Under the pieces are notes generated by a model, which saw only the letters and a program-made list of their open reading frames with translations, made no database searches and was not told where the DNA came from. This document shows, one piece after another, positions 7,709-63,945 of a DNA stretch of 64,000 nt. The stretch is from a virus (taxonomy: Duplodnaviria; Heunggongvirae; Uroviricota; Caudoviricetes). The DNA lies in IMG/VR virus record IMGVR_UViG_3300029957_000005, positions 1 to 64,000 of that record; one strand, 5' to 3'. A program made the translations under genes and the position numbers. Positions within the stretch are counted from its first letter, which is position 1, and each line of letters begins with the position of its first letter.

Positions 7709-8127
7709 CCACACCCTTCGACTGGATCAATAGCATCTGCACCGACAACAAGAATGCGGTCATCGAAGGAAAGCTGGACCCGAGAGAGTACAACTCATTC
7801 ATCGTGAATCGTGGGTTGTCTCTCTACGAGGACACCATCGCCTACGCTCAGCAGATGAACCTTAGACCGGACATTCCGGCCGAGGCTCAGTATCACTTTC
7901 TTCACGGCCTGGTGTCCAAGAAGAGACGCTTCTCCAAGTGGCCGAAGATGGACATAACCAAATTGGATAAGGACCTGTACGATGTACTGCAGGACAAATA
8001 TAGATACTCTCTGGAGAAGTGTATCGAAATTTCCAGGATCCTGTCCGATGAACAGAAGAAGACCCTGATCGATCTGCATATTGCTCCTGTGATGAAGAAG
8101 AGCAAGTCGAGGGATGGCACAGAATGA
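7705..8127 (+). CDS. 62: clamp loader small subunit gp62-like
   Basis: Position between 44 and regA, ATGA overlap with 44. Weak N-terminal similarity to gp62. Confidence 0.6.
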   Translation: MTTPFDWINSICTDNKNAVIEGKLDPREYNSFIVNRGLSLYEDTIAYAQQMNLRPDIPAEAQYHFLHGLVSKKRRFSKWPKMDITKLDKDLYDVLQDKYRYSLEKCIEISRILSDEQKKTLIDLHIAPVMKKSKSRDGTE

Positions 8128-8584
8128 ACAGGGAGATCTCATCATTGAGATCAGAGACTTCTCCGGCTCGGAAATCTATACTCTCGAAGCCATCCGCGTA
8201 ACAATCAAGCCAGAGAACTTCCTCAAGATCAAAGAGACGCTCCAGCGAATGGGGATCTACTCTGATCGAGACGGAACTCTCTGGCAGACTGCGCACATCC
8301 TCCACAAGCGAGGGTTCTACTACATCCTCCACTTCAAAGAACTATTTGCCCTCGACGGAAAGAGTGTAAACTTCTCCGCCGAGGACGAGATTCGTCGTAG
8401 CTACATCGTAGCCCTCCTCGAGAAGTGGAACCTTCTGACCATCTCGGATCCGAAGGTTCTTCTGGATGTTCGAAAGGACATCATCGAAGGCACAAAGCCG
8501 ACCAATCTGACAATCCTCCCACATACGTCAAGAACGAAGGTTCGACTCAGATCAAAATATGAGATCGGTGCCAAAAAAGTTTGA
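8114..8584 (+). CDS. regA: translational repressor RegA
   Basis: IRVTIKPENFLKIKETLQRMGIY...HILHKRGFYYILHFKE collinear with T4 RegA. ORF has about 30 aa N-terminal extension relative to T4 RegA and overlaps 62 by 14 nt. Confidence 0.8.
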   Translation: MAQNEQGDLIIEIRDFSGSEIYTLEAIRVTIKPENFLKIKETLQRMGIYSDRDGTLWQTAHILHKRGFYYILHFKELFALDGKSVNFSAEDEIRRSYIVALLEKWNLLTISDPKVLLDVRKDIIEGTKPTNLTILPHTSRTKVRLRSKYEIGAKKV

Positions 8585-8610
8585 ACATTTCGTCACTTCT
8601 TTGATATAAT
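8581..8610 (+). promoter_or_regulatory. sigma70-like promoter TTGAAC-N18-TATAAT upstream of DNA polymerase gene
   Basis: Hexamers read directly from sequence; 7 nt before ATG 8617 region. Confidence 0.3.
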
Positions 8611-8616
8611 GGGTAT

Positions 8617-36550: not shown

Positions 36551-37243
36551 ATGCTCTCGTACTTCAATCGGGTCGGAGACAATCCGATCACTGAATCCCT
36601 GGTGGCCTCGATAGGCCTGATGGTCATCATCTACGGTGTCTCGGCCCTGATGGGTGTGGACATCTCCTGGAACCCGATCGAGATCTCCGCGGTCTGGACC
36701 TCCTTCGTCTGCACCTACCTCTGCGTCGTCCAGAGCCGCTTCAACTATGTGGTCGGCGTGATCACCACAGCCCTCTACTCCTATCTCTTCTACCAGTCCC
36801 ATCTGGTCGGTTCGATGGTCCTGAACCTTTATCTCATCCCGACCCTGATCTATGGATGGTTCATCTGGGGACCTGACAACAATGCCAAGCCGGTCCAATG
36901 GGTCAAGTGGAAGTACATCCCGGTCTACGTCCTTGCTACCTTCGCCACCTATCTCGGCGCCCTCTGGATCGTCCAATACTTCGGCGGAAGCATGGCGCCT
37001 CTTGACTCCTGGATCCTGATCGGCACGATCCTTGCTCAGTACCTCCTGGACCGAAAGAAACTCCAAACCTGGTTCATCTGGGTCGCCGTGAATGTGGTCT
37101 CGATCTACGTCTACTACAACTCCGGCCTCTACCTGGTCGCCATCCAATACATCTTCTTCCTCCTGAACACCGTCTTCGGATGGTACATGTGGAACAAGTC
37201 CATGCAGCCTCAGCCTGCATTTGGTCGACTCCCAGCCGAATAA
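36551..37243 (+). CDS. pnuC: PnuC-family nicotinamide riboside/NMN transporter
   Basis: Polytopic membrane protein. YGWFIWG, QTWFIWVAVNVVSI and FGWYMWN match PnuC conserved W-rich motifs (E. coli YGWYAW, ENWLLWVIINVISV). Confidence 0.65.
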   Translation: MLSYFNRVGDNPITESLVASIGLMVIIYGVSALMGVDISWNPIEISAVWTSFVCTYLCVVQSRFNYVVGVITTALYSYLFYQSHLVGSMVLNLYLIPTLIYGWFIWGPDNNAKPVQWVKWKYIPVYVLATFATYLGALWIVQYFGGSMAPLDSWILIGTILAQYLLDRKKLQTWFIWVAVNVVSIYVYYNSGLYLVAIQYIFFLLNTVFGWYMWNKSMQPQPAFGRLPAE

Positions 37244-37247
37244 GCTG

Positions 37248-37276
37248 TTTACATTCCTCTGAATCCTGTGTAAGTT
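37248..37276 (+). promoter_or_regulatory. sigma70-like promoter TTTACA-N17-TAAGTT embedded in 10-bp palindrome CCTCTGAATC/GATTCAGAGG
   Basis: Palindrome arms at 37256-37265 and 37289-37298 flank the -10 and +1. Confidence 0.4.
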
Positions 37277-37307
37277 CGACTTATATGAGATTCAGAGGAA
37301 TTCCGAA

Positions 37308-37556
37308 ATGCCACGCAATATCGAAATTGTCTCTTACGATCTGACCTTCTTCAAAGGTGAAGAGACCAAGGTCCTGTCCTTCTCGACCTACGTGGATCGT
37401 GATGTCTATGATGATCCGAAAGAAGCGATCATCGATCACATCTCCGACAAGATCACCCTCATCCAGGGAGATGCCAACATCCCAGGGTTCCTCCCCAAGT
37501 TCAAGACCCTGAGGATCTGGAGATCTCACAAGCCCTCCGACCTCGATTTGAAATAG
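37308..37556 (+). CDS. hypothetical protein
   Basis: ORF track. Confidence 0.5.
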   Translation: MPRNIEIVSYDLTFFKGEETKVLSFSTYVDRDVYDDPKEAIIDHISDKITLIQGDANIPGFLPKFKTLRIWRSHKPSDLDLK

Positions 37557-37563
37557 GACAAGC

Positions 37564-38616
37564 ATGCGCGGACTTCTAATGATGACTGCCCTCCTTCCCA
37601 CGGAGGGTCACAGAAACTTTATCGAGTTCGCTCGGAACTTCATGGAGATCAAAGGTGGTCAGTTGACCGTCATGGTCAACACCAGAGGATTTGAGCCGAT
37701 CTCAGGTGGTCTTCGCCTTCGTTGGCTGACCGAAGAATTCAAAGGTCCGGTGGACAACGGTCAGATCGACATCGTAGTCACTGACATCGACACCGCTCCT
37801 CAGAACCCGGAAGATCATCCGGACTTCTGGAACTGGTGGGCTCAAACCACCTGGGACTGGACCGGAAGCAAGAACTACGACTACTTCTTCGCCTCGGAAG
37901 CGTACGGCCTGGAGATGTCCAAGCATCTCGGCCAAGACTGTCGCTTCGTTCCATACGACATCGCCAGGGACATCCTCCCGATCTCAGGAACAGTGGTTCG
38001 TCGCGGTGGTCCGGAGTTCTGGGATCAGATCATTCGTCCAGCTCGGAATCACCTCGGTCAGAAGCTCGGATCCTTCTGCATGTTCGGTCAGGAGTCCGTC
38101 GGCAAGACCACCATCGCCAAGGCCCTAGCCAAGCAGAACAGTGCAGCATCCTTCCAGCCCGAATGGGCCCGCCCTTATCTGGAGACCGTCGGCCCGGATC
38201 TGAACCCGAATGTCATGGACATCATCTTCGCTGGTCAACTCGCCCAGATGAAGGCCACGGCCGGACAGACCATGGTCACCTATCGGGACACGGACCTCCT
38301 GAGCACCATCGGATATCAGAGACTCGCCGGGTGGAAGGTTCCGTCCTATTGGAACGATCAGTTCGACTCTTTCAGGTCCTCCCACTATTTCCTCCTCCCG
38401 GATGATGTCCCATTCGAACCGGATCCTCTTCGCTATGGTGGAGACAAGAGGGAGACGGACACGAAGTTCTGGTATGATCTCCTGATAGAATACAGCTGCA
38501 ACTTCACCGTCGTCCCCAGAGGGACCCTGGCGTCCAAGATCGACTACATCTTCGAGAAGTCAGCCGGTCTCGTCCACAAGAACTGGGAACCCATTCGAGA
38601 ATTCAAGAGGACCTGA
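37564..38616 (+). CDS. NadR-like protein with P-loop kinase domain (ribosylnicotinamide kinase-like; N-terminal adenylyltransferase-like region)
   Basis: Walker A FGQESVGKTTIAKALA matches the NadR/NRK motif GxESxGKS[T]. Adjacent to pnuC as in bacterial pnuC-nadR operons. N-terminal region is divergent. Confidence 0.55.
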   Translation: MRGLLMMTALLPTEGHRNFIEFARNFMEIKGGQLTVMVNTRGFEPISGGLRLRWLTEEFKGPVDNGQIDIVVTDIDTAPQNPEDHPDFWNWWAQTTWDWTGSKNYDYFFASEAYGLEMSKHLGQDCRFVPYDIARDILPISGTVVRRGGPEFWDQIIRPARNHLGQKLGSFCMFGQESVGKTTIAKALAKQNSAASFQPEWARPYLETVGPDLNPNVMDIIFAGQLAQMKATAGQTMVTYRDTDLLSTIGYQRLAGWKVPSYWNDQFDSFRSSHYFLLPDDVPFEPDPLRYGGDKRETDTKFWYDLLIEYSCNFTVVPRGTLASKIDYIFEKSAGLVHKNWEPIREFKRT

Positions 38617-38960
38617 TGTTCAATTTCAAACGCTCGGATTGGTTCAAGAAAGGCCGCAAGAAGGTCGAACCTGAGCCCGACTACTCCGGGATCGAATCTC
38701 CGATGAAGTATATGGTCGTTCCGAAGAGTCCTCATCGCTGGGATGTCTATCAGATCAATCGAAAGGACGCCGAGTTCTTGACCAAGAAGAAGGGTCGTGA
38801 GCCCTCACTCGAGGAATGGACCTTCGTCATCTACAGCACCTCCGAGAACGCAGCCAAGGGCTACATCTACGAGAAGCTGGAGCAAGATCGCCGAGATGTC
38901 TTCGAGATGCACAGGGACCTCGCCTTTCGTCGAGATAATCAGCCGTACGAAGTCGAATAA
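38616..38960 (+). CDS. hypothetical protein
   Basis: ATGA overlap. Confidence 0.5.
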   Translation: MFNFKRSDWFKKGRKKVEPEPDYSGIESPMKYMVVPKSPHRWDVYQINRKDAEFLTKKKGREPSLEEWTFVIYSTSENAAKGYIYEKLEQDRRDVFEMHRDLAFRRDNQPYEVE

Positions 38961-38989
38961 ATACAAGCGGTACGAGAAAGGAACAAATC

Positions 38990-39412
38990 ATGAATCTCCG
39001 TCCGATAATCCTGGGAGCAGTCTTTGCACTGGCTACCCTGTTCGCCGTGAATGCAAGTGCCCACACCTACGACGGAGGTCCTGATGCTCCCGTCCAGATC
39101 CAAGAAAATCAGCCGATCACTCTCCAGCAGCTCCTCGACGGGACCCTCAAGGGCGTCGCCGACAAGATGAACGTCACCGCCTCCGAACCCAAGAAGGAGA
39201 CGATGACGATCTACGCCAACGTCATCAATCAGATCTTCGGTGTCGGCGTCCTCAACGGAACGATCGATGCCTATGCGATCGAAGGCTCCGACGGCAATCT
39301 CCGAGTTCGTCTCATCAAGGGCGACCAGAAGGCCGAACAGACCGTGAACTTCGGCAAGGTTCAAACGGACGCCTTGTTCTTCATGGAGACCTCCCCGACC
39401 TTCGGAAAATAA
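38990..39412 (+). CDS. secreted hypothetical protein (signal peptide)
   Basis: MNLRPIILGAVFALATLFAVNASA|HTY. AATAAATA (late-promoter-like) about 28 nt upstream. Confidence 0.55.
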   Translation: MNLRPIILGAVFALATLFAVNASAHTYDGGPDAPVQIQENQPITLQQLLDGTLKGVADKMNVTASEPKKETMTIYANVINQIFGVGVLNGTIDAYAIEGSDGNLRVRLIKGDQKAEQTVNFGKVQTDALFFMETSPTFGK

Positions 39413-39415
39413 GAG

Positions 39416-39444
39416 TTTACAACTCACGAAGGATGTAGTAGACT
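39416..39444 (+). promoter_or_regulatory. sigma70-like promoter TTTACA-N17-TAGACT followed by 10-bp palindrome CTGTCTCCGT/ACGGAGACAG
   Basis: Palindrome 39443-39472 overlaps the -10/+1 and contains the SD GGAGA. Confidence 0.45.
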
Positions 39445-39475
39445 GTCTCCGTTGTCAAACAAACGGAGACAGAAC

Positions 39476-39694
39476 ATGGAAATGTCCGAAGCCAAGATGA
39501 ACCACTTCAAAGAAGTCGCTCGTCGCGCTCGTCAAGCTGAAGAGTTCATCGTCGCCGAAGCCAAGAAGATGGGGATCGAGCTGTCTGCCGAATCCGCTGC
39601 CATCTTCCGGAACATCGTCACCGAGATCTACGGTGACAACATGAAGCCGGTTCCCGTCGATCCCGACGAGAATATCGGATCCACAACCCCCTAA
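39476..39694 (+). CDS. hypothetical protein
   Basis: ATG after the palindrome; the ORF-track start at 39452 is a TTG inside the palindrome. Confidence 0.45.
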   Translation: MEMSEAKMNHFKEVARRARQAEEFIVAEAKKMGIELSAESAAIFRNIVTEIYGDNMKPVPVDPDENIGSTTP

Positions 39695-39702
39695 GGAATT
39701 CA

Positions 39703-39903
39703 ATGGAATACGACATAGAATCTGAAGTCCACATCTACGACGGTCGAGGGGAGAAGCTCTCGATCGTCTCAGACCCGGACAGTCTTGGTCTTGTAGTGAT
39801 CAAGGGCAATGACTACTTCGGAGGAGAGATCCAGTTCGACAAAGCCATGCTCGGCGCTGTGATCGAAGGCCTTCAGAAATTCAAGTCGTCCAATGACCTC
39901 TAA
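39703..39903 (+). CDS. hypothetical protein
   Basis: ORF track. Confidence 0.4.
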   Translation: MEYDIESEVHIYDGRGEKLSIVSDPDSLGLVVIKGNDYFGGEIQFDKAMLGAVIEGLQKFKSSNDL

Positions 39904-39913
39904 GGAGAAGAAG

Positions 39914-40429
39914 ATGCCCAAGAAAGTCGTGAAAGTCGCCGAGAACCACGCAGACGAAGCGTTCTACAACGGTGGACCAGCTCCTGCTCCCGCTCCAAAG
40001 GACTACGGTCCAGGACCTCACACAGCCGTGGATGCTGTGGTGATCTTCTCAGACGACTTCGAGGACCACATCCTCGTGATCACCCGCAAGGACGGGACAA
40101 CTGCTCTCCCAGGTGGATTCGTGGATCCGGAAGATGATTCTCTTCTCGCTGCGATCCTTCGTGAGGTCAAGGAAGAGACGGGTCTGGATCTCCTTCAGTA
40201 CTGGAGACAGGAGCCGATCGAACTTCCTTCGATGACCGACAAGAAGCGTGATCCACGAAGCTGGGTCATCTCCCATCCGTTCTTCTTCAAGGTTCGTTCG
40301 AGGGTTCTACCCAAGGTCACCGGAATGGACGATGCCATCGGTGCCAGGTGGGTGGTGGACAATTTGATCGATCACCAGAACTGGTTCCTCGATCATCGTC
40401 AGATCATCAGGAACGCTTTCGAAGCCTGA
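39914..40429 (+). CDS. Nudix hydrolase
   Basis: Nudix box GGFVDPEDDSLLAAILREVKEETGL. AAGGAG RBS 7 nt upstream of ATG 39914. Confidence 0.75.
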   Translation: MPKKVVKVAENHADEAFYNGGPAPAPAPKDYGPGPHTAVDAVVIFSDDFEDHILVITRKDGTTALPGGFVDPEDDSLLAAILREVKEETGLDLLQYWRQEPIELPSMTDKKRDPRSWVISHPFFFKVRSRVLPKVTGMDDAIGARWVVDNLIDHQNWFLDHRQIIRNAFEA

Positions 40430-40511
40430 GATCTACGATCAGAGCCTTCCAGCAGTGGTCCTTATCGAAGACCACTGCTCCGACGAACCGACAGAACAAA
40501 CAGTCATGACC

Positions 40512-40553
40512 GAACCTTCTCGCTATTCTGGCGCAGAAGGTTTGGTTCGTTTG
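40512..40553 (+). terminator. hairpin GAACCTTCT..AGAAGGTT followed by TTTGGTTCGTTTG in the convergent gap
   Basis: A second hairpin AGCAGTGGTC/GACCACTGCT sits at 40451-40479. Confidence 0.3.
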
Positions 40554-40606
40554 TCCACCAGTTAGTCTGTTCAGGAGCCTGGAGCTGGAGCAAAGGGTTT
40601 CGTAGA

Positions 40607-41209
40607 TCATGTCGGCCAGTATGACGGGTTCTGATAGTCAGTTGGAATTGGTGAAGTATCCTTGAGAGCCCTGGCTGCAAAGATGCAGTTCATCTCCCAG
40701 GTCGCTGCTGCCTGACCGAAAGCGAAGACGGTCGGAGCATCCATTGGATTGAGGCTGTTGTCATCGGCGATCCAGACGAAGTCAGTATCTCCTCCGTGCC
40801 AACGATAATTTCCGGCTGCAGCTCCTGCACCGACAGCAAAGCCAGCCAGAGTGGCCATATAGGCAATGCGAGCCTTGGAAATTTCGTCCATGGCATAGGA
40901 CTTACCGAAGAACTTGAAGCCGGTAGAGATCCTCGCATCCCTCTCGACGTCCACGTCCGTGGAATCAATCACATGAATGCTCGTGGTCCAGACGTATTTT
41001 GGAACTCCATCAGTGACCACCACCGACTGGGAGACACCGATCTCTCCGACCGGAATCAGATCTGCTGGTAGGATCTCTGCAAGACGATAGTCCTCGTTCT
41101 CCCATCCGGCTTCTGCTGGAGAGATCACATCAGTCCCGATCGTGAACCGGCTGTTGGTCATCACTTCCTGGAGGACGAGAGAGTCAGACTTTCTGATGAG
41201 GGCTAGCAT
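40607..41209 (-). CDS. hypothetical protein, last gene of minus-strand fiber module (possible adhesin or fiber chaperone)
   Basis: Gly/Ala-rich segment GFAVGAGAAAGNYRWHGG. 26-nt overlap with the upstream gene. Confidence 0.5.
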   Translation of the reverse strand: MLALIRKSDSLVLQEVMTNSRFTIGTDVISPAEAGWENEDYRLAEILPADLIPVGEIGVSQSVVVTDGVPKYVWTTSIHVIDSTDVDVERDARISTGFKFFGKSYAMDEISKARIAYMATLAGFAVGAGAAAGNYRWHGGDTDFVWIADDNSLNPMDAPTVFAFGQAAATWEMNCIFAARALKDTSPIPTDYQNPSYWPT

Positions 41210-41837
41210 TCTTTATCCTGTTGTAGAGTTCGATGTCCTGCTCATAGTATTTATGCACAGCCTTCAGGGAGGCGGCATCATAGAAGGTGGCCACGAAATC
41301 CTTGGTCTTCTGATCTCGTAGAGATCGGTTCTGGAACTTCAGAGGCTCCTTGACTCGGATCCCATGATCCCTCACGAAGGTCTCAATGTGATCACTGATT
41401 CTATCGAACAGCCACCACTCACCTCCCTCCGGAAGGAATGTGAACTGAAGCTGATTCTGCCAAGGGAAGTCCGGATAGAATCCGTGAGCCGAGACAATCC
41501 GTCTGAAGTCCTGGACGCCTGGGGAGCCTATTAGGGCCTGTTTTGCTCGATAGAGATAGAGACTCAGAACTCTCTCGACCGGCTCCCTGACGACACCTAC
41601 GACCTTCTCTGATGCATCCAAGAGTCCGTGCTTGATAGCATAGGTCGAGTCCATATGAGAATTGTCGGCATGAACCGGATCCATGTTCTGGGACCAGGTT
41701 TCGTCCTCAGTCTCGTAGTAATTCGAGAAGGAGTCCTCCGGCTGAACAACGTTGTCGATGAAGAAGCGCCTGATCGAAGTCGAAGCGTTCTTCGGAACGT
41801 TGATGAAGTTGAAGCCGAGCCTCTTGATCTTGATCAT
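41184..41837 (-). CDS. sulfotransferase-like protein (PAPS-dependent family)
   Basis: 5'-PSB-like FINVPKNASTS and 3'-PB-like VVREPVERVLSLY (compare RDPxERxxSxY). Start at internal ATG (ATGA overlap); the ORF-track N-terminal extension to 41945 overlaps the upstream gene. Confidence 0.5.
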   Translation of the reverse strand: MIKIKRLGFNFINVPKNASTSIRRFFIDNVVQPEDSFSNYYETEDETWSQNMDPVHADNSHMDSTYAIKHGLLDASEKVVGVVREPVERVLSLYLYRAKQALIGSPGVQDFRRIVSAHGFYPDFPWQNQLQFTFLPEGGEWWLFDRISDHIETFVRDHGIRVKEPLKFQNRSLRDQKTKDFVATFYDAASLKAVHKYYEQDIELYNRIKNASPHQKV

Positions 41838-42424
41838 CTGAGGAGGAAGGTGTTGAGAGTCAGCCGGATCCCGGAGGTCGACTTGTAGGAGTGCCAGGTG
41901 GTTCCGGTCTCGGCTGCGAAGACCATGGTCCTGTTCGGCTTCCATTCGATCTGCTTGACGAACTTCTTGTCTCGGTCGTAGAGGAGGGTTCCGTCTCCTG
42001 TCTCCGGATAGAGATAGGTCACGGCCGAGAGAACCTTGTCTTCGACTTCATCGTGGATCGGGTGCTCGGACTCCTTGAGGCAGAGGATGACCTCACCGTA
42101 GACTTCAAGAGAGTCGTAGTCTCGATGGTTCGGAAAGTGCTTGAGAAGATAGCTAGGATTCCTGGACTGAAGGAGCTTCCTGGTCTCCGGAAACTTGTCG
42201 CTGGTGTAGAGATTACGAGCCGAGATGAAAACGTCTCCACTCGTCTTGGTCACGAACTCTGATCGTTCAGTCTTGACCTTGGTCAAGATCTCTCGAACGG
42301 CCGAGTCGGTCTGGACTTGGTCATAGTATCCATCGATGACTTCGTGCGGCCAAGGATCATACGAGAACATTGGAGCCGGCAGCATGATCGAGTATGCGCT
42401 TTTCGATTCTTTCTTCATAACCAT
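41834..42424 (-). CDS. 2OG-Fe(II) oxygenase-like protein (tentative)
   Basis: HPIHDEVED (HxD) ... TTWHSY (distal His) ... GIRLTLN (RxS/T), spaced as in the 2OG-oxygenase jelly roll. Confidence 0.4.
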   Translation of the reverse strand: MVMKKESKSAYSIMLPAPMFSYDPWPHEVIDGYYDQVQTDSAVREILTKVKTERSEFVTKTSGDVFISARNLYTSDKFPETRKLLQSRNPSYLLKHFPNHRDYDSLEVYGEVILCLKESEHPIHDEVEDKVLSAVTYLYPETGDGTLLYDRDKKFVKQIEWKPNRTMVFAAETGTTWHSYKSTSGIRLTLNTFLLR

Positions 42425-43214
42425 CTTCTTTCACATTGATGCATAGTTTGGTGGAGTACCAGGTCAGGAACTTGCCGAGATCGTTCCTGGACACAGGAGG
42501 GATATCCTTGAGTTCGGCCGCGCTCTTGATTGTAGGAACCAGTTCCGAGAAGATCATCGGATCGTAGGTGGCACAGGGCTTGTCGGCAAGCATGGCGTTC
42601 AGGGACACCGAACTCCAGGAACTGAAGACTCTATCAGCCTTCTCGACCAGGTGATTGAGATTGTAGGAGGCATCGATGAAGATCGCATACTCGCTGTCCA
42701 GACCTACGATCTTGTTCAGAGCGAGAGGATGCCTCTTGAAGACGGTGTAGGACTTGCTCTGGGTGGCATAGGCTGCTGCGTCCACGATGTGATTGTACTC
42801 GATCCCTACAGGGTCCTGCATCACGAACAAATTGTAGGAGGACGGAAGTTCCGGGACTCCTTCCGGCTGAGGATATTCGGTGTTGGATCGAGAGCGATAG
42901 AGATCCACAACCGACTGGTCGAGAGTGGTGTTCTTCCAATAGTTCCACTGAGGATTGTTCTTGTCGATGTAGGCCCGATTCGGAGAAAAGATGAAGTACT
43001 CTAGATTCGGAATGCCGAAGCGCCAAGTCAGGACGTTGGTGAACTCCTGAGCGTCGTCCGGATCCGCGAAGATGCAGTTCTTGAGATCCCTCTTCTCGAG
43101 GATAGAATCCACGAGAGTGGCTACTTTGAGAGTCGGCGAAAAGGATGAATGCATCTCTTTATACTGGACGACCTTGTTGATCCACAGGAGGACGGTGTTT
43201 CTATTCGGGGTCAT
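42357..43214 (-). CDS. hypothetical protein, possible glycosyltransferase / capsule-biosynthesis-like
   Basis: 285 aa. HPLALNKIVGLDSEYAIFIDASYNLNHLV is weakly reminiscent of KpsS/KpsC-type transferases. Low confidence. Confidence 0.45.
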   Translation of the reverse strand: MTPNRNTVLLWINKVVQYKEMHSSFSPTLKVATLVDSILEKRDLKNCIFADPDDAQEFTNVLTWRFGIPNLEYFIFSPNRAYIDKNNPQWNYWKNTTLDQSVVDLYRSRSNTEYPQPEGVPELPSSYNLFVMQDPVGIEYNHIVDAAAYATQSKSYTVFKRHPLALNKIVGLDSEYAIFIDASYNLNHLVEKADRVFSSWSSVSLNAMLADKPCATYDPMIFSELVPTIKSAAELKDIPPVSRNDLGKFLTWYSTKLCINVKEDGYEERIEKRILDHAAGSNVLV

Positions 43215-43504
43215 TCGAGATCCGGAACTGCTGCAAGGATGCGAGCGAATTGATCGTCGGTGAGAGTCTGATCGTTGTATGAAGCCACAATGTCTCCCTC
43301 TCTAGATTTCTGATAGGCCTGGACGATGTCGTCGGTCCAAACGGTGGCGTGAGCCTGGTTCACAGCATCTCTGAGGGCCGGGATGACAAAGTCTGAGGCT
43401 GGAAATCGAATCCACTTGTTGTCACGAACCAGAGCCGGAGGGATCTCGAAAGAGCAGTTGTCGACCTCGATGTGGAGAATTTTGAATGGGCCTTCGTAGG
43501 TCAT
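43211..43504 (-). CDS. hypothetical protein
   Basis: ATGA overlaps on both sides. Confidence 0.5.
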   Translation of the reverse strand: MTYEGPFKILHIEVDNCSFEIPPALVRDNKWIRFPASDFVIPALRDAVNQAHATVWTDDIVQAYQKSREGDIVASYNDQTLTDDQFARILAAVPDLE

Positions 43505-44370
43505 GGCGAGATGAACCTCAGGCTTTGGGCCAGATTGCTGTAGAAGTAATAGGTCGTCGTAGTTCCTCCGCCACGTCCACCGCTGCTTGTAGTTACCGCT
43601 TCATAGCTTGTATCGGAAGTGAAAGTTCCGGCCGCGTCCATGACGTGGAGAGCCATTTGTCTAGCGGTGGAGTTGTAGTTTTCGTTGGTCTCGATGATTC
43701 TGGTGTTCGCAGGTCCACCATGTCCAATTGTTGGGATGCTGGTATCGGCTCGGCTCAGTCCGCCCTTGATGAACACGATGTCGTTGGTAGTCACGGAAAG
43801 AGAAGTAGAGCTGTGAGACGTATTCAACGCCTGACCACCTCCATAGAACGAATTCGAGATGCCTCCCCACTTGCCTGGAAGAACATAGACCTGCTGGGAG
43901 TTCGTTCCACCACCGGTGCCCTTGTTGAAGGTCACTGCAATGGATCTGATATTACCGAAGCCAATCGGAATTTGGAACAGACAGAGCTTGAAGTTAGATC
44001 CGACGCCAGTGGTCTTGGAATAGAGGATCGTTTCGTCCGTAGCCGAATAGGCTCCACCGTCGGCTGAGACGACGGTCGTTCCTGGAGAATTTCCTTCATT
44101 GACAGTAAGGACGGTGGTCCATCGACTGAACAGGTTCATGGTGGACTGCGGATAGGTTATGGTTCCAGAGACGGCCGTGGAAGCCTGATAGGTCGAGCTG
44201 AAGCCTTCGGCGAAGGGTCCTGCTCCGGCGTTGGACTCAAAGCCTTGGGCAATCGAAGTCTTGGTGATCAGCTGATTTCTGGATGCAATCGTCTTGATCG
44301 CAGAAATCGCCTGGGCCAGGGTGAGCATCTTGAATCCTGGCGACGTAATAGGCATCAGAGGAAAGCTCAT
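43501..44370 (-). CDS. Gly/Ser/Thr-rich fiber-associated protein (possible distal fiber or receptor-binding protein)
   Basis: AAGGAGAG RBS. GGGT/GGRGGG stretches and beta-rich composition. Confidence 0.55.
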   Translation of the reverse strand: MSFPLMPITSPGFKMLTLAQAISAIKTIASRNQLITKTSIAQGFESNAGAGPFAEGFSSTYQASTAVSGTITYPQSTMNLFSRWTTVLTVNEGNSPGTTVVSADGGAYSATDETILYSKTTGVGSNFKLCLFQIPIGFGNIRSIAVTFNKGTGGGTNSQQVYVLPGKWGGISNSFYGGGQALNTSHSSTSLSVTTNDIVFIKGGLSRADTSIPTIGHGGPANTRIIETNENYNSTARQMALHVMDAAGTFTSDTSYEAVTTSSGGRGGGTTTTYYFYSNLAQSLRFISP

Positions 44371-44380
44371 TGAACTCTCC

Positions 44381-45427
44381 TTATACGCACTTGACGACGT
44401 TGGCTAGTTTGAGACCGGACATGCTGGTCAGGAAGATCATGAATTGGGATCCGTTGGTGGTGTCGAAGGAGTCTCCGACAACATTGTGGAAACCGGACAT
44501 AGTGACGGCTCCGGCTGTCGCACTGTTGACCAAACGAACGACCATAGAAACTGTTGCCGCTGATGGTGCAGCGAGAGTGAATGCTCCGCCATTCGTGGCC
44601 AGACGGAAGTTGCTTCCGGACTGAGATGGAGTATAGGTTACTCCGGACTTGGATCCATCATTGACTTCTGTGCCCTGGTAGCCTGCGGCACCGATCGTCG
44701 CATCAGCATTGACGACCACAGCATTTGAGAGCTTGGTCGCTTCGGTGGTCGTATATCCTTGGTAGCCGCCGGACCAGGACAGAGAGATGTTGCCGGATGT
44801 GGTCACCGCAGATCCGGCGGTCAGGCCAGTAGGAGCCGAGATGCCGACCGATGTCACAGTTCCTGTGTTTGCAGTAGCGCCTGAAGCGATGCCAGCAAGC
44901 TTGGTGGCCTCGGTGGTTGTATAGCCTTGGTAGCCAGCGGCATAGACGATGGCCAGAGTTCCTGATCCGGTGACTGGGCCGCCTGAGACTGAGAAGCCGG
45001 TCGGGACTGAGGCTTGGACAGAAGTGACGGTGCCTGGCTGGGCGCCAGAGGCAATGCCTGAGAGCTTGGTCGCTTCAGCAGAAGTATATCCCTGATAGCC
45101 AGCCTGATAGGTGATGGCTAGGGTGCCTGAGACCGTGATCGGAGAGTTAGCTACAGAGAGACCGGTTGGGACGGTCATTGCGACTGAAGTCACGGTTCCG
45201 GAGGTGATAGTCGGCTTGCCTGTTAGATCGCTGTAGGCACCGGTTTTGCCGGCCAAGGAGATGTCGGACAGCTTGGCCATCGCAACAGAAACACTGGTCG
45301 AAGTGGCCATCTCCAGACGACCTTCGTCGGTAACGAATAGGAGCTCATAAGCCGTCAGGGACGAGGATCCCTGGAGGGCAGTCAACGCCGCTCGTGTTCC
45401 TCTCTTGGGAAGAATTTTGTTTGCCAT
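44381..45427 (-). CDS. tail-fiber-like protein with three tandem ~56-aa repeats
   Basis: N-terminus MANKILPKRGTRAALTALQGSSSLTAYELLFVTDEGRL is a typical fiber N-terminal motif. Repeats GTVTSV..VPTGL......SGT..I.Y.AGYQGYT..EATKL.GIASGA x3. Confidence 0.7.
   Translation of the reverse strand: MANKILPKRGTRAALTALQGSSSLTAYELLFVTDEGRLEMATSTSVSVAMAKLSDISLAGKTGAYSDLTGKPTITSGTVTSVAMTVPTGLSVANSPITVSGTLAITYQAGYQGYTSAEATKLSGIASGAQPGTVTSVQASVPTGFSVSGGPVTGSGTLAIVYAAGYQGYTTTEATKLAGIASGATANTGTVTSVGISAPTGLTAGSAVTTSGNISLSWSGGYQGYTTTEATKLSNAVVVNADATIGAAGYQGTEVNDGSKSGVTYTPSQSGSNFRLATNGGAFTLAAPSAATVSMVVRLVNSATAGAVTMSGFHNVVGDSFDTTNGSQFMIFLTSMSGLKLANVVKCV
44700..45200 (-). repeat. three tandem ~170-nt repeats inside fiber gene 44381..45427
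   Basis: Recurrent GAGCTTGGTCGCTTCGG..GTATATCC(T/C)TGGTAGCC on the + strand at about 44721, 44881 and 45061. Confidence 0.6.
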
Positions 45428-45451
45428 ACCGAACTATGTATCCTTGGAACC

Positions 45452-46474
45452 TTAGAAGGTTCCACCGTCGAGAGTGACACCGTCGATCGTTCCACCGGTG
45501 ATTGCAACTGCTGAGGCGCTCTGGTAAGCCATGGTTCCGGCCGATGCCAGATCCGCAACGTCGATGACGACAATGCCTGTGTAGCCGTTGACCGAGACCA
45601 CCTGATCGGTGTTGTCGATCTTATCCCAGGCTGCACCGTCCGAAACGATCCAGTCTCCGATTGCCCATTCTGAAATCCCGTCGACTGTCGTTGTTCCGGC
45701 AGTGGTGACGATGTAGTACCAACCCTTGTTTCCAGAGGCGGCCGCAGGGATGGTTGGGCTGTTGGTAGTTGCATTCCATCCACCCTGATAGTTCATTCCA
45801 CCTAGGACTGCATCAGGCAGCTGGGAGGTTGGGACCTTTCCGGATCCATCCAGACCGGCGACTCCGAGAGAAGCACCGATCTGAGTGATGTCGATCTTTG
45901 CGTCCAGAGCAGTCTGAAGTCCGGAGACGGTAGAGATTGCCTGGGTTCCGGTGTGATTTCCACGAGACAGGAGATATGCATCGGACTGGTTGGCCGTTGC
46001 ACCGGAGGCGATGCCTGAGAGCTTGGTGGCTTCGGCTGAAGTGTAGCCCTGGTAGCCGGTGTCGTAGGTGATCGAGATCGTTCCGGACGTGGTGACCGGG
46101 GATCCGGAAACGACGAGTCCTGCTGGGACCGAGACGGCGATCGAAGTGACAGTTCCGGCTCCGGCCCCGGCCATTGCAGCGTTGACCCATGCGACTGTGG
46201 TCAGGTCGTCGTTTGCAGAAGGAGTACCGGAGGTCTTTGGAACAGAACCGAAGGTCTTGATGCCTCCGACTGTCTGATTTCCGGAGAGCATGACCGTTCC
46301 GCCTGGTCCACCGACCGGGATGACCGTGGTTGCGGTTCCACCTCCTCCGCCTGTGCCCTTACCGTAGTAGAGGATGTCGTCTACTTCGTTGTATGCGAGT
46401 TCTGCGTTCAGAAGACTCGAAGGAGCTCCAGGTGCGCCGCCTGAACGACGCTTGATACGAATTGGTGATGCCAC
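45452..46474 (-). CDS. tail-fiber-like protein with poly-Gly hinge and one copy of the shared repeat
   Basis: N-terminus LAYNEVDDILYYGKGTGGGGG. Repeat copy GTVTSIAVSVPAGLVVSGSPVTTSGTISITYDTGYQGYTSAEATKLSGIASGA. Confidence 0.7.
   Translation of the reverse strand: MASPIRIKRRSGGAPGAPSSLLNAELAYNEVDDILYYGKGTGGGGGTATTVIPVGGPGGTVMLSGNQTVGGIKTFGSVPKTSGTPSANDDLTTVAWVNAAMAGAGAGTVTSIAVSVPAGLVVSGSPVTTSGTISITYDTGYQGYTSAEATKLSGIASGATANQSDAYLLSRGNHTGTQAISTVSGLQTALDAKIDITQIGASLGVAGLDGSGKVPTSQLPDAVLGGMNYQGGWNATTNSPTIPAAASGNKGWYYIVTTAGTTTVDGISEWAIGDWIVSDGAAWDKIDNTDQVVSVNGYTGIVVIDVADLASAGTMAYQSASAVAITGGTIDGVTLDGGTF
45988..46156 (-). repeat. fourth copy of the ~170-nt fiber repeat, in the upstream fiber gene
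   Basis: CTTGGTGGCTTCGGCTGAAGTGTAGCCCTGGTAGCC at 46021. Confidence 0.5.
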
Positions 46475-46678
46475 TTAGAAATTACCTCCATCGGTAAGAA
46501 TTAGTCGTGTTTGATTGACCCACTTCTGAGCCGAGGAATCGTAGACAACCACATCGAGGTCCTGCGGATTGATGATTTTCACGTTGAACTGATCCTCCGG
46601 TGGGGCCGGAGGCACTTCTTCATAATTGAAGATCGACTTACCAAATCCAAGTTGAAGCTGGCCGATCGGACCCTGCAT
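46475..46678 (-). CDS. hypothetical small protein, first gene of the minus-strand module
   Basis: TATAAAGG (near-match to T4 late TATAAATA) about 18 nt upstream. Confidence 0.45.
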   Translation of the reverse strand: MQGPIGQLQLGFGKSIFNYEEVPPAPPEDQFNVKIINPQDLDVVVYDSSAQKWVNQTRLILTDGGNF

Positions 46679-46730
46679 GCCTACTCATTTCCTTTATAGA
46701 GTATGTATTTCACCCGAATGTTGTGTTAAG

Positions 46731-49695: not shown

Positions 49696-49806
49696 ATGCA
49701 CAATCCCTACGCAAAGTCCCTTTCGTCCAAGCTCTTCCAGAAGAAAGCCATTCGCGCCAAGAAGGGTCGTGGTTCCTACACCCGTCGCGACAAGCACGCA
49801 AAGTGA
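49696..49806 (+). CDS. small highly basic protein (36 aa), not in ORF track
   Basis: MHNPYAKSLSSKLFQKKAIRAKKGRGSYTRRDKHAK with C-ending codons. Ends in AAGTGA overlapping the next gene. Confidence 0.35.
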   Translation: MHNPYAKSLSSKLFQKKAIRAKKGRGSYTRRDKHAK

Positions 49807-49817
49807 GAATTGATCAC

Positions 49818-51155
49818 ATGATCGTCGATATGTGCGACATCCCCTACGGGTGGACCTGCGGTTTTCCTCGTCCGATCTTCGATACGGACAAAGCTTCTCC
49901 GGAAGCGATGAGGGACTATTTCCGACGTCACGGCGTCGTCGAAGAGCCTCTCCATCTCCGTTACTTCCACTCGGAGATCAATGTCACAGATCTCAAGGAG
50001 AACTATCGGATCGCCATCCCAGGTTTCGTCTATGAAATCCTTGCCGTCCTGAACCAGTGCGGTCATCAGGCCTATGCGGTCGGTGGTGCGGTTCGTGACT
50101 CCTTCCTGAATCGTCCAATCAAGGACTGGGACGTTTCCACCTCCGCCACCCCTCAGCAGGTGACCAACATCTTTGAGAACCTGATGGTTCCTGTTCATCC
50201 GACCGGGATCGCCCATGGGACGGTCACCGTGGTCTTCGGTGGTGAGAACATCGAGGTGACGACCTTCCGGACCGATGTGAACACCGATGGTCGTCATGCC
50301 GAGGTCGCCTTCTCGGACAACATCGTCGAGGACGCCTATCGTCGGGATTTGACGATCAATGCTCTCTATGCCGATCGGGACGGTCGAGTCTTCGATCCGA
50401 CCACCGAAGGTCTCTATGACCTGATGAACCAGAAGATCAGAATGGTCGGTTCCCCGAGGGATCGGATCAACGAGGACACCCTTCGCATCCTGAGAGCGGT
50501 TCGGTTCGCCGGTCAGCTGGACTTCCAGATCGAAGCCCACACAGCCTACGTGATTCACAACTGTGAAGCCGACGTCCTTAGGAACCTGAGTCTGGAGAGG
50601 ATCATCTCCGAGCTGGAGCGCATCCGTCCATCCCACGTCAAGGTCATTGCCAAATTCCTTGCTCCGGTGTTCGGGGTCCAGCATCTCCACCTGCCTTACG
50701 AGGAGCACATCCTTGAAGAGCTTTCGAAGATGCCGTGGTTCTATCTCTACATCTTCGCCAAGGTCCCTGGTCAGTGGTTCACCGCCAATCCTGTGATCTC
50801 CAAGGACGTCAAGAGAGCAGTCAAGCTCCTCCTGAACATGTCCTATGGAGTCCCGATGGACTCCTGGGACGCAGCTCAGCGCTTCGGCCTGGAGGAGATT
50901 CGTCTCGTCCAGAAGTTCTATCTCCTGAAGCATCCGAGTGGAGAGGTTCCGAAGATGCCTTTCTTCCACACTCTACCGGTAGCGCTTGTCAAGAACCCAG
51001 TCGGATCCGCCGACTTCATAGAGGAATTCAAGGGCCCTGAGCTCGGGAAGATCCTCGATATTGCCAACACTCTTCACGCCGAATTCAGGTTCAGCCTGAA
51101 CAAAGAAGAATTGTCAAAACTCGCAAGGATAAAGTATAATCACTTCTATGGATAA
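49818..51155 (+). CDS. tRNA nucleotidyltransferase (CCA-adding enzyme, class II head domain)
   Basis: AVGGAVRDSFL...DWDVST (GGxVRD/DxD) and RRDLTINALY motifs. Confidence 0.8.
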   Translation: MIVDMCDIPYGWTCGFPRPIFDTDKASPEAMRDYFRRHGVVEEPLHLRYFHSEINVTDLKENYRIAIPGFVYEILAVLNQCGHQAYAVGGAVRDSFLNRPIKDWDVSTSATPQQVTNIFENLMVPVHPTGIAHGTVTVVFGGENIEVTTFRTDVNTDGRHAEVAFSDNIVEDAYRRDLTINALYADRDGRVFDPTTEGLYDLMNQKIRMVGSPRDRINEDTLRILRAVRFAGQLDFQIEAHTAYVIHNCEADVLRNLSLERIISELERIRPSHVKVIAKFLAPVFGVQHLHLPYEEHILEELSKMPWFYLYIFAKVPGQWFTANPVISKDVKRAVKLLLNMSYGVPMDSWDAAQRFGLEEIRLVQKFYLLKHPSGEVPKMPFFHTLPVALVKNPVGSADFIEEFKGPELGKILDIANTLHAEFRFSLNKEELSKLARIKYNHFYG

Positions 51156-62898: not shown

Positions 62899-63945
62899 AT
62901 GGAAATTGATAGAGCACTAGCGTCCATTCGACGCATCGCAGGCATTCGCCCGATCGAGGGAGCAGACGTCATCGTCTGTGCAACCGTGGACGGATGGGAA
63001 CTCGTCACCCAGAAGAGCAACGGCTTCAAGACCGGGGATCTGGTCGTCTACTTCGAGATCGACTCGGTCCTCCCGGAGAAGGAGCCTTTTGAGTTCCTCC
63101 GTGAGCGCTGCTACGTCTCTGCAGAACGTTCGGTCAACGGAGCAGGCTTCCGTCTGAGGACCATCAAGCTCCGTGGACAGGTTTCACAAGGCCTGATCCT
63201 TCCGATCTCTGCTCTGGATCATCTGATCTACGATGGGGACCACACCTCCTACGAGGAAGGAACGGACCTCACCGAGATCTTGGGAGTGGTCAAGTACGAG
63301 AAGCCTCTGTCGGCCAATCTGGCCGGTGTGGCTCGAGGCAACTTCCCGACCTTCATCCCGAAGACTGATGAGACCAGAGTTCAGAATGCCCGTCGCATTC
63401 TCGAGCAGTCCTGGGATCACACCTTCGAGGTCTCGATCAAGCTGGATGGGTCGTCATGCACGATCTATGAACACGACGGCAAGTTCGGCGTCTGTTCCAG
63501 GAATCTGGATCTCGAAGAGACCGAAGGCAACTCCTTCTGGCAGGTGGCTCGCAAGTACGATCTCCCGAACAAGCTCGGAGGTCTCGGTCGCTTCAAGTCC
63601 ATCGCAATCCAAGGAGAGCTGATGGGTCCTGGAGTCCAGGGCAATCCGGAGGACCTGAAGGAACTCGATCTCTTCGTCTTCAACATCTATGACATCGCAC
63701 GTCGTGGGTACTTCAACCCACACGATCGTGGAGTCATCTGCAAGGTCCTCGGCCTGAAGTCCGTTCCGGTTCTGGAGTACAGGACCTTTGACACCTTCAC
63801 CATCGCCGACTATGTGGCCTATGCCGATGGTCCATCCCTGAACGAAAAGAAGAACCGTGAAGGTCTGGTCTTCAAGAGCCAGAGGGATCCATCGATCTCC
63901 TTCAAGGCAATCTCAAACAAGTGGTTGCTCAAGAACGATGGGTAA
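62899..63945 (+). CDS. ATP-dependent RNA ligase (Rnl-type covalent nucleotidyltransferase)
   Basis: Motif I SIKLDGSS (KxDGS), motif III IAIQGELMG, motif IV REGLVFKS, motif V K-x-K near C-terminus. Confidence 0.6.
   Translation: MEIDRALASIRRIAGIRPIEGADVIVCATVDGWELVTQKSNGFKTGDLVVYFEIDSVLPEKEPFEFLRERCYVSAERSVNGAGFRLRTIKLRGQVSQGLILPISALDHLIYDGDHTSYEEGTDLTEILGVVKYEKPLSANLAGVARGNFPTFIPKTDETRVQNARRILEQSWDHTFEVSIKLDGSSCTIYEHDGKFGVCSRNLDLEETEGNSFWQVARKYDLPNKLGGLGRFKSIAIQGELMGPGVQGNPEDLKELDLFVFNIYDIARRGYFNPHDRGVICKVLGLKSVPVLEYRTFDTFTIADYVAYADGPSLNEKKNREGLVFKSQRDPSISFKAISNKWLLKNDG

Follow-up and report, generated by a model that had tools for sequence, protein, structure and literature searches.

Why should a tail-fiber operon of a tailed phage, lying inverted among genes for replication and nicotinamide adenine dinucleotide (NAD) metabolism, carry three enzyme-like genes between its tip protein and its chaperone? 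The question is raised by a 64,000-nucleotide stretch of viral DNA (Caudoviricetes; positions 1 to 64,000 of the IMG/VR virus record IMGVR_UViG_3300029957_000005; hereafter the window), in which a minus-strand operon of ten open reading frames (ORFs) spans positions 40407-46678, with the genes head-to-tail and separated by at most 24 nt or overlapping. This is a fiber operon, encoding two fiber proteins (fib340 and fib348), a tip protein (p289), a small acidic protein (p97), three enzyme-like proteins with conserved cofactor sites (the glycosyltransferase-like p285, the 2-oxoglutarate (2OG)-Fe(II) oxygenase-like p196 and a sulfotransferase) and a chaperone (p200; Table 1). Together these genes form a mobile cassette that is conserved as a unit alongside tail fibers, and because the gene set recurs beside tail fibers in many unrelated uncultured phages, it probably decorates the fiber tip chemically. 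The favored reading, which is given about an even chance of being right, is thus that of a host-recognition cassette carrying its own enzymes for the chemical modification of the fiber tip.

Conserved gene neighborhoods link the enzymes to the fibers

The decisive evidence for an association between enzymes and fibers comes from conserved gene neighborhoods, and the view that the enzymes belong functionally with the fibers, previously put forward from the window alone, is much strengthened by this synteny. The order fib348 C-terminus-p289-p97-p285-p196-sulfotransferase-p200 is identical in the IMG/VR loci L001-L004 and in L007/L008, which likewise stem from uncultured T4-like phages, with 39-69% identity for the gene products of the block and 44-54% for the fiber C-terminus. 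In L007, a 262-kb JGI contig, the block follows genes for gp8-like and DUF4815 giant-fiber proteins and precedes those for DUF1353 and T4 gp13 proteins. None of the genes flanking the operon in the window has a homolog in the 20 kb around the module in L001-L004, which identifies the cassette itself as the conserved unit. A looser core, in which a tip protein and a small acidic protein are joined by p285-like and p196-like proteins, occurs in other types of phages. It lies downstream of a GpJ-type central fiber and an S74 fiber in L009 (with two sulfotransferases, a second oxygenase and a GT8 protein), behind a giant fiber of 1321+ aa in L010 (with an S-adenosylmethionine (SAM) methyltransferase), beside gp13/14/15 in the T4-like phage L012 (with a radical-SAM/SPASM enzyme), and with an S74 fiber and/or a Gly-rich (Gly_rich_2-type) tip protein in L013-L015.

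The survey of this linkage covered 46 IMG/VR loci with a gene for a p196-like oxygenase. Wherever the identity of this oxygenase to p196 reaches 37% or more (15/15 loci), a p285-like gene is found immediately upstream, and in 9 of those 15 loci a sulfotransferase gene also follows immediately downstream; the more distant oxygenases of the survey have neither a p285-like nor a sulfotransferase neighbor. Around this pair the tailoring genes vary, and include those for one or two radical-SAM/SPASM enzymes, an FkbM methyltransferase, a HisC/CobD-like aminotransferase and extra p285 paralogs.

Two further observations concern the composition of these cassettes. In L023, three p285-like paralogs (322, 330 and 334 aa) surround a single p196-like oxygenase, and the tandemly duplicated glycosyltransferase-like family lies directly upstream of neck and terminase-type genes. 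Moreover, a family of ~165-aa proteins (WHTNSD...GxRxYY...WHxVW...RFxFGF) is encoded in many cassettes between the genes for the small acidic and the p285-like proteins. The one member scanned, that of L022, has no Pfam or NCBIfam match, and a six-frame search found no member of this family in the window.

The three enzyme-like proteins

The protein p285, which the original prediction had called a possible glycosyltransferase, turns out to be a GT-B-like relative of Capsule_synth proteins, linked by profile searches to the transferases of beta-linked 3-deoxy-manno-octulosonate (Kdo). A profile built from eight close relatives retrieved 145 proteins, mostly of 280-330 aa, from 1.84 billion representatives, and all of the scanned longer, distant hits (10/10) are Capsule_synth proteins (PF05159) aligned over the conserved core. 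Searched against the PDB, a profile of 80 family sequences matches the beta-Kdo transferase domain of WbbB (1.6e-6) and KpsC (6e-5), with UDP-GlcNAc 2-epimerase and TarL next in the ranking. The family keeps an HP motif (77/80; H162 in 77/80 and P163 in 74/80), S201 (80/80) and K212 (71/80), and it shares with the beta-Kdo transferases a nucleotide-binding stretch of the form S-x-x-G/S-x-x-A...GKP. A cassette variant bears on the sugar donor as well. Downstream of its sulfotransferase gene, L022 encodes a HisC/CobD-like pyridoxal phosphate-dependent aminotransferase, a radical-SAM/SPASM enzyme, a KdsB-like synthetase of cytidine monophosphate (CMP)-Kdo and a small SAM methyltransferase. The cytidylyltransferase of L022 scores 193.8 bits against the NCBIfam model for 3-deoxy-manno-octulosonate cytidylyltransferase (cut-off 193) and 3e-34 against Pfam CTP_transf_3, and this KdsB-like gene provides independent, indirect support for a putative CMP-Kdo-type donor of the p285 family. 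By sequence, L024 has the same ORF order and a near-identical cytidylyltransferase N-terminus, the family models having been run on L022 only.

The second protein, p196, had been described as 2OG-Fe(II)-oxygenase-like, and its conserved metal- and 2OG-binding motif agrees with that call, though in Pfam it stays below threshold. In the 16 sequences of its family that were compared, which go down to 36% identity, H124, H178 and R187 are invariant, and E126 (D in one sequence) and T189 are nearly so. 2OG-FeII_Oxy_3 is matched at E<=0.1 by 13 of these 16 members, the best at 1.4e-4, and the TET/JBP family is absent among the Pfam matches of p196. Among cultured phages it matches a single protein, from a cyanophage, which carries the annotation 2OG-Fe(II) oxygenase. 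The real start of p196 is probably at 42418 or 42370.

The sulfotransferase assignment passed the Pfam check, with 37.9 bits against a cut-off of 22 for Sulfotransfer_2 (PF03567; E=2.9e-9), and a match to PHROG 3347 ('galactose-3-O-sulfotransferase', 1.9e-8) was also obtained. The PKxxS and REPVERVLSLY motifs noticed earlier correspond to the two sites for 3'-phosphoadenosine-5'-phosphosulfate (PAPS), NVPKNASTS (PKxxS/T; 5'-phosphosulfate binding, 5'-PSB) and R84-x-P86-x-x-R89-V-x-S92 (RxPxxRxxS; 3'-phosphate binding, 3'-PB), both of which are invariant in five orthologs. The start of the gene, formerly set at 41945, is corrected to 41837 (MIKIKR...). Searched alone against PDB sequences, the protein has no credible match.

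No hydrophobic segment, whether membrane anchor or amphipathic, was detected in p285, p196 or the sulfotransferase, and these enzymes are therefore probably cytoplasmic, where fibers assemble. Their families are small. Among 5.8 billion proteins, 8 belong to the p285 family and 17 to the p196 family (p285 and p196 included), and that of the tip protein p289 consists of 11 (10 homologs and p289 itself); all three families are seen only in metagenomic phage contigs, where they are labelled 'hypothetical proteins'. Searches of 50,697 GenBank phages by tblastn returned no match for p285 and two divergent members of its family, nor for the sulfotransferase, and patterns derived from the single p285 protein had no match in viral contigs. 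In 185,579 reference genomes of bacteria and archaea, two scans by pattern, one with the close p285 alignment and one with the p196 family, found no relative, and thus no prophage copy came to light. Nothing meaningful resulted when the ten proteins of the module were scanned against NCBIfam.

Fibers, tip protein and chaperone

Both fibers have the Gly/Ser/Thr-rich bodies that had been ascribed to them, since G+S+T content amounts to 38-40% in fib340, fib348 and p289 (38% in the latter). fib340 begins at a GTG codon with GGAGG ten nt ahead. Its C-terminal 190 residues (144-333) are 53-58% identical to the tail fiber of N4-like Rhizobium phages, and this domain also matches tail fibers of Ochrobactrum and Agrobacterium phages. 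The earlier claim that the fiber N-termini are conserved holds for fib340, the first 56 residues of which match, at 44% identity, the N-termini of proteins of 570-650 aa encoded in L034, L035 and L045, but could not be demonstrated for fib348; the N-termini of the two proteins show no significant mutual alignment. A unit of ~54 aa is common to both fibers at 74% identity (one copy in fib340, three in fib348), and Tandem Repeats Finder detected no DNA-level tandem repeat behind these protein repeats. The last ~100 aa of fib348 are 44-54% identical to the C-termini of those fibers that directly precede p289 homologs elsewhere.

The protein encoded next, p289, is the candidate substrate of the enzymes and, as judged from its predicted structure, probably a beta-sandwich protein of the fiber-tip or minor-tail type. 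The AlphaFold2 (AF2) model, usable and of medium quality (predicted template modeling score, pTM, 0.73), is entirely beta, and its best matches among predicted viral structures are minor tail proteins of mycobacteriophages (TM ~0.44). Membership of p289 in the gp38/Gly_rich_2 group was considered and rejected, as neither p289 nor its 9 relatives match Pfam GP38 or Gly_rich_2 even at E up to 10; the positional equivalents of p289 in L013 and L014 match Gly_rich_2 weakly. The acidic p97 shares a C-terminal helix of the LTxEEIxxIL type with its own positional equivalents. In L001, L002 and L004 its homologs are fused to a class-I SAM-methyltransferase domain of ~135 aa (IIDCGAGxG), and the protein is short and unfused in the window and in L007. 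The possibility that the extension in L001 and L002 represents the ~165-aa 'WHTNSD' family was discarded, the extension being the SAM-methyltransferase domain.

The 200-aa protein at the other end of the cassette, p200, had been described as Gly/Ala-rich. With 7% G and 12.5% A it is not notably Gly-rich, and it is better described as a DUF4376 tail-fiber chaperone (57.6 bits against a Pfam cut-off of 25). It is 43-53% identical to proteins of Agrobacterium and Rhizobium phages annotated as 'tail fiber assembly', and DUF4376 proteins have been shown experimentally to act as fiber chaperones in Alteromonas phages (PMC7289586; PMC10579305). By sequence, p200 is thus probably a tail-fiber chaperone or assembly protein. 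In the window, as in L001-L007, it is encoded in the same operon as fib348 but five genes apart, not immediately downstream of the fiber.

Setting of the operon in the window

An inverted fiber module within the replication region was the starting observation at this locus, and it is borne out by the strand switch and by the replication and NAD genes on its flanks. Almost all genes around 40407-46678 are on the plus strand, and the sign of the GC skew flips exactly across 40-46 kb. The operon is followed by a gp61-like primase gene and preceded by genes for a PnuC-like transporter of nicotinamide mononucleotide (NMN), a NadR-like NMN adenylyltransferase and a NUDIX hydrolase, all on the plus strand; farther upstream lie genes for gp47/46-like nuclease subunits, a family-B DNA polymerase, a UvsX-like recombinase and a gp41-like/DnaB-like helicase. 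The flanks are non-structural genes, and the cassette of the window phage is inverted among replication and NAD genes rather than being located in the structural region. Recent horizontal acquisition, considered on the grounds of base composition, was rejected, because the GC content of the operon (0.52-0.56) resembles that of the flanks.

Across 50,697 deposited phage genomes, no polymerase exceeds ~33% identity to the T4-type family-B polymerase, the best matches of which are scattered among cyanophages and Rhizobium T4-like phages, and megablast of the 6.3-kb operon region against the same number of phage records gave zero matches. Taken together, these two results indicate that the window comes from a deep-branching, uncultured T4-like phage. 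The closest cultured relatives of p200 and of the receptor-binding half of fib340, in phages of Rhizobium, Agrobacterium and Ochrobactrum, hint, at the sequence level, at a host among the Hyphomicrobiales (soil/rhizosphere).

Stop and start codons overlap in the ATGA manner at three junctions of the operon (p289/p97, p97/p285 and p196/sulfotransferase). The late-promoter-like box that had been noticed ahead of the operon, TATAAAGG, is indeed present, but the count of such boxes is not above chance: the window contains three copies of TATAAAKR, scored as a TATAAATA-like late-promoter box, where 1.09 are expected, and 7/100 shuffles reach three; the remaining two copies are intragenic. A T4-type late promoter at TATAAAGG is plausible but not supported by this count. 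A scan for sigma-70 promoters and terminators in the window showed no excess over shuffles. The longest primase ORF (ATG at 46677, plus strand) and the ORF g67a (ATG at 46678, minus strand) share one GCATGC palindrome, from which they run in opposite directions. A primase start at 46731 (MESMTVQ...) is more probable, and with it a divergent intergenic region of ~52 bp would hold the TATAAAGG box. g67a itself has no space for a ribosome-binding site, no homologs and no match in Pfam, PHROG or NCBIfam. The idea that it is a remnant of the giant fiber found upstream in relatives was rejected, as it shows no similarity to the fibers or small ORFs of related loci. Its C-terminal peptide (...LTDGGNF) is similar to that of fib340 (...TLDGGTF), which may be chance. 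At the opposite end, p67b converges on the NUDIX gene with an overlap of 23 nt.

Other features of the window were observed in passing. The NAD-salvage cluster adjoins the fiber operon, and in the related T4-like locus L012 a NAMPT gene is found in place of this set. A gene for a CCA-adding tRNA nucleotidyltransferase is present despite the absence of tRNA genes from the 64 kb (none detected by ARAGORN), and an RNA ligase gene lies near the end of the window.

Table 1. Positions of the operon genes, of other features of the window and of cassette features in related loci
Feature	Locus	Positions	Strand	Description
p67b	window	40407..40610	-	67-aa Cys-rich ORF, 3' end of operon; phrog_3342, 1.7e-8
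p200	window	40607..41209	-	DUF4376 protein, 200 aa; Pfam 2e-15
Sulfotransferase	window	41184..41837	-	Sulfotransfer_2, 217 aa; start overlaps p196 stop (ATGA)
p196	window	41834..42424	-	2OG-Fe(II) oxygenase-like; conserved HxE...H...RxT motif
p285	window	42357..43214	-	285-aa GT-B-like protein; Capsule_synth/beta-Kdo transferase relative via profiles
p97	window	43211..43504	-	97-aa acidic protein (pI 4.5); always between tip protein and enzymes
p289	window	43501..44370	-	289-aa Gly/Ser/Thr-rich all-beta protein; probably fiber-tip/receptor-binding protein
fib348	window	44381..45427	-	Second fiber protein; three 54-aa repeats, conserved C-terminus
fib340	window	45452..46474	-	Fiber protein; PHROG tail/minor-tail families, 2.5e-22
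g67a	window	46475..46678	-	67-aa ORF, status uncertain; start overlaps divergent primase ORF
TATAAAGG box	window	46691..46698	-	13 nt upstream of operon's first ATG; possible T4-type late promoter
Family-B polymerase	window	8617..11118	+	T4-type
NAD-salvage cluster	window	36551..40429	+	PnuC-like (PF04973, 3.5e-39), NadR-like (phrog_3462, 4e-47), NUDIX
tRNA nucleotidyltransferase	window	49803..51155	+	CCA-adding; phrog_2244, 5.5e-52
RNA ligase	window	62899..63945	+	PHA02142-type, oligonucleotide/oligosaccharide-binding (OB)-fold N-terminal domain (PF21189, 1.4e-32; PF09414, 1.5e-26)
p97-methyltransferase fusion	L001	7987..8685		
p97-methyltransferase fusion	L002	7969..8679		
p97-methyltransferase fusion	L004	~8009..8700		
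~165-aa family	L013	2014..2511		
~165-aa family	L014	6997..7482		
~165-aa family	L015	649..1146		
~165-aa family	L021	6561..7079		
~165-aa family	L022	6631..7143		Member scanned
~165-aa family	L025	3328..3819		
~165-aa family	L029	6621..7133		
Tailoring genes	L022	9150..11943		Aminotransferase, radical-SAM/SPASM, KdsB-like, methyltransferase
Tailoring genes	L024	7181..9995		ORF order as in L022
p285-like paralogs	L023	273..3814		Three, around one p196-like oxygenase

Proposed decoration of the fiber tip and alternative explanations

In the favored model, p289 would dock late in infection on the conserved C-terminal domain of fib348, with p97 as an adaptor that would present it to the enzymes. 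As a CMP-sugar-type GT-B enzyme, p285 would move an acidic ulosonic sugar, most likely Kdo drawn from the CMP-Kdo pool of the host, onto the tip protein; p196, using Fe(II) and 2OG, would hydroxylate the acceptor residue or the sugar; and the sulfotransferase would sulfate the glycan with PAPS of the host, while p200 would aid the folding of the fiber. The receptor-binding tip would thereby come to carry a negatively charged glycan that could modulate adsorption or shield the tip. That the substrate is a protein is hinted at by the maturase-type radical-SAM/SPASM enzymes of several variants, by the p97-methyltransferase fusion and by the probable cytoplasmic location of the enzymes. A broader and more detailed version of this model is put forward tentatively, as a possibility well short of even: an uncultured, widespread class of cassettes would make a glycoprotein fiber tip by means of a phage-specific family of CMP-ulosonic-acid (Kdo-type) transferases that has a 2OG oxygenase as its constant partner, the product being an acidic, hydroxylated and sulfated glycan tailored by sulfotransferases, radical-SAM enzymes, methyltransferases or a phage KdsB.

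Several points weigh against decoration of the tip. It is gene linkage that assigns p289 or the fiber as the putative substrate, and the enzymes of solved structure that come nearest to p285 have lipid-linked glycans, and not proteins, as their substrates. On its own, p285 has no Pfam Capsule_synth match (only Glyphos_transf, E=0.025), and its AF2 model is poor (predicted local distance difference test, pLDDT, 48.9), being confident only at ~120-215 (Rossmann-like); the top Foldseek matches of this poor model are all GT-B enzymes, WbbB, KpsC and TagF among them, at a TM of just 0.25-0.32. Retaining beta-Kdo transferases are defined by an invariant QXXXD that holds the Asp nucleophile (PMC10148158). 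This motif is not kept in p285, for which the window reads QDPVGIE, and in the family Q is found in 69/80 sequences, followed by D/E at Q+4 in 7/69 and at Q+6 in 24/69. Homology to the beta-Kdo transferases without QXXXD places p285 in a new phage-only branch, not among canonical GT99/GT107 enzymes, and its chemistry or donor may differ from theirs, or p285 may be non-catalytic. p196 scores 22.3-22.6 bits against 2OG-FeII_Oxy_3 (PF13640), below the cut-off of 27, and two p196 profiles had no match among PDB sequences. The Sulfotransfer_2 alignment covers only model positions 10-101 of 252, i.e., the N-terminal third. Finally, no CMP-sugar synthetase is encoded in the window, and the cassette occurs in no cultured phage among the GenBank phages searched.

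Rhizobiales hosts make Kdo-rich K-antigens and sulfated lipopolysaccharide (LPS), and the fiber and chaperone domains of the operon point to such hosts. This background favors the main rival explanation, which is held to be unlikely, namely that the enzymes act at the cytoplasmic face and alter an envelope glycan of the host (LPS core, lipid-linked Kdo or K-antigen capsule), that the changed receptor limits superinfection or the loss of progeny on debris, and that the enzymes travel with the fiber genes since both are specific for one receptor. Further points favor this explanation: WbbB and KpsC, to which p285 is closest among proteins of solved structure, elongate O-antigen or capsule acceptors that are lipid-linked (PMC10148158; PMC9587256), Sulfotransfer_2 and PHROG 3347 are carbohydrate-type families, and some variants contain sugar-pathway genes (KdsB-like, aminotransferase, FkbM methyltransferase, GT8). 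However, the enzymes sit between the tip protein and the fiber chaperone and not at the edge of the fiber module, p289/p97-type proteins are always part of the core, and the radical-SAM/SPASM enzymes and the p97-methyltransferase fusion better suit the maturation of a protein. Co-transcription with the fibers would imply late expression, when a new envelope glycan would make up a minor share of the surface. Also unfavorable to receptor masking are the lack of any detected membrane anchor or amphipathic hydrophobic segment in the enzymes and the outcome of the two reference-genome scans, in which neither a family member nor a prophage copy was seen.

It is improbable, in turn, that the locus is an ordinary fiber locus in which p285, p196 and/or p97 are catalytically dead or are factors for folding or assembly of the tip, the enzyme-like folds being relics and at most the sulfotransferase being active, on an unrelated substrate. 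The missing QXXXD nucleophile of p285 and the sub-threshold Pfam matches of p285 and p196 agree with such a locus, as does the fact that dedicated chaperones are common in tail-fiber loci, but the cofactor-binding residues of p285, p196 and the sulfotransferase have stayed strongly conserved among widely divergent sequences, and the variants add bona fide enzymes (KdsB-like, radical-SAM, methyltransferases). Hydroxylation and glycosylation of phage DNA bases by the oxygenase and the transferases, as in T-even and TET-encoding phages, would be in keeping with the position of the cassette among replication genes and with T4 beta-glucosyltransferase being likewise a GT-B enzyme, but this role is very improbable and was rejected on synteny and family grounds, as relatives keep the same enzymes in the virion-structure region among fiber, chaperone and neck genes, p196 matches the prolyl-hydroxylase-type 2OG-FeII_Oxy_3 with no TET/JBP among its Pfam hits, and linkage to p289/p97-type proteins is strict.

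Relation to known systems

Virus-encoded glycosylation of virion proteins and fiber cassettes with chaperones are already known. What appears to be new here is the combination of a tip protein, a Capsule_synth-like transferase without the canonical nucleophile, an obligatorily paired oxygenase and a sulfotransferase, and a literature search on sulfotransferases or radical SAM with tail fibers found no description of such a cassette. The nearest biochemical relatives of p285, WbbB (GT99), KpsC/KpsS (GT107) and Capsule_synth (PF05159), resemble its family in profile matches, HP motif and nucleotide-binding stretch. In contrast to GT99 and GT107 enzymes, p285 lacks QXXXD, has only ~285 aa with a short, unrelated N-terminal half, and gives no direct Pfam hit; moreover, its family occurs only in phage contigs beside fiber-tip genes, not in capsule or O-antigen loci.

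In the glycosylation of giant-virus fibrils, virus-encoded transferases are thought to decorate virion surface proteins. Glycosylation of mycobacteriophage capsids and tails is treated in literature cited in PMC11256854 and PMC12363180. These virion glycosylation systems are similar to the cassette in that virus-encoded transferases adjoin structural genes; here, however, the enzymes are tied to a fiber-tip protein, the transferase belongs to a CMP-sugar/Capsule_synth-like lineage and is accompanied by an oxygenase and a sulfotransferase, and the decoration is a putative one.

Bacterial glycosylation islands of flagellins and pilins place the gene of a surface-filament protein beside a CMP-ulosonic-acid-type transferase and variable tailoring enzymes, and collagen-type modification consists of hydroxylation followed by glycosylation of the resulting hydroxyproline or hydroxylysine (Hyp/Hyl). 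The cassette is like the former in its variable tailoring set (methyltransferases, aminotransferase, cytidylyltransferase), and its prolyl 4-hydroxylase (P4H)-type oxygenase next to a glycosyltransferase recalls the latter. It differs from both in having no shown homology to Maf/PseE-type or collagen enzymes, in being phage-encoded and in including a sulfotransferase.

With respect to fiber architecture, the distal fiber gene of T-even phages (gp37) is followed by that of a tip adhesin or chaperone (gp38), and the cassette likewise has a distal-fiber gene followed by one for a Gly-rich protein of ~270-290 aa. Unlike gp38, p289 has no GP38/Gly_rich_2 match and is predicted to form a beta-sandwich like that of mycobacteriophage minor tail proteins. 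Alteromonas phages V22, A5 and P24 also encode a DUF4376 protein downstream of the fiber, in a host-recognition module that distantly related phages exchange with one another (PMC7289586; PMC10579305). In the Alteromonas modules the chaperone gene comes directly after the fiber gene and no enzymes have been described, whereas here five genes, three of them for enzymes, lie in between.

Implications

The amino-acid sequence of the fiber tip is the usual explanation for the host range of tailed phages. If the favored reading is correct, the chemistry of the tip would also be set by post-translational decoration with CMP-Kdo, 2OG and PAPS of the host, and sequence-based prediction of host range would have to take this decoration into account. 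Phage engineering would be affected as well, as fibers moved without their enzymes might fail. For glycobiology, the p285 family would represent a new branch of the beta-Kdo transferase superfamily without the canonical nucleophile. Even with a host glycan as substrate, a receptor-matched set of glycan-editing enzymes in the fiber operon of a lytic T4-like phage would be unusual. The more detailed version of the model, if true, would make the decorated tip the first sulfated glycoprotein of a bacteriophage virion and would reveal a new route by which phages diversify or shield their receptor-binding surface.

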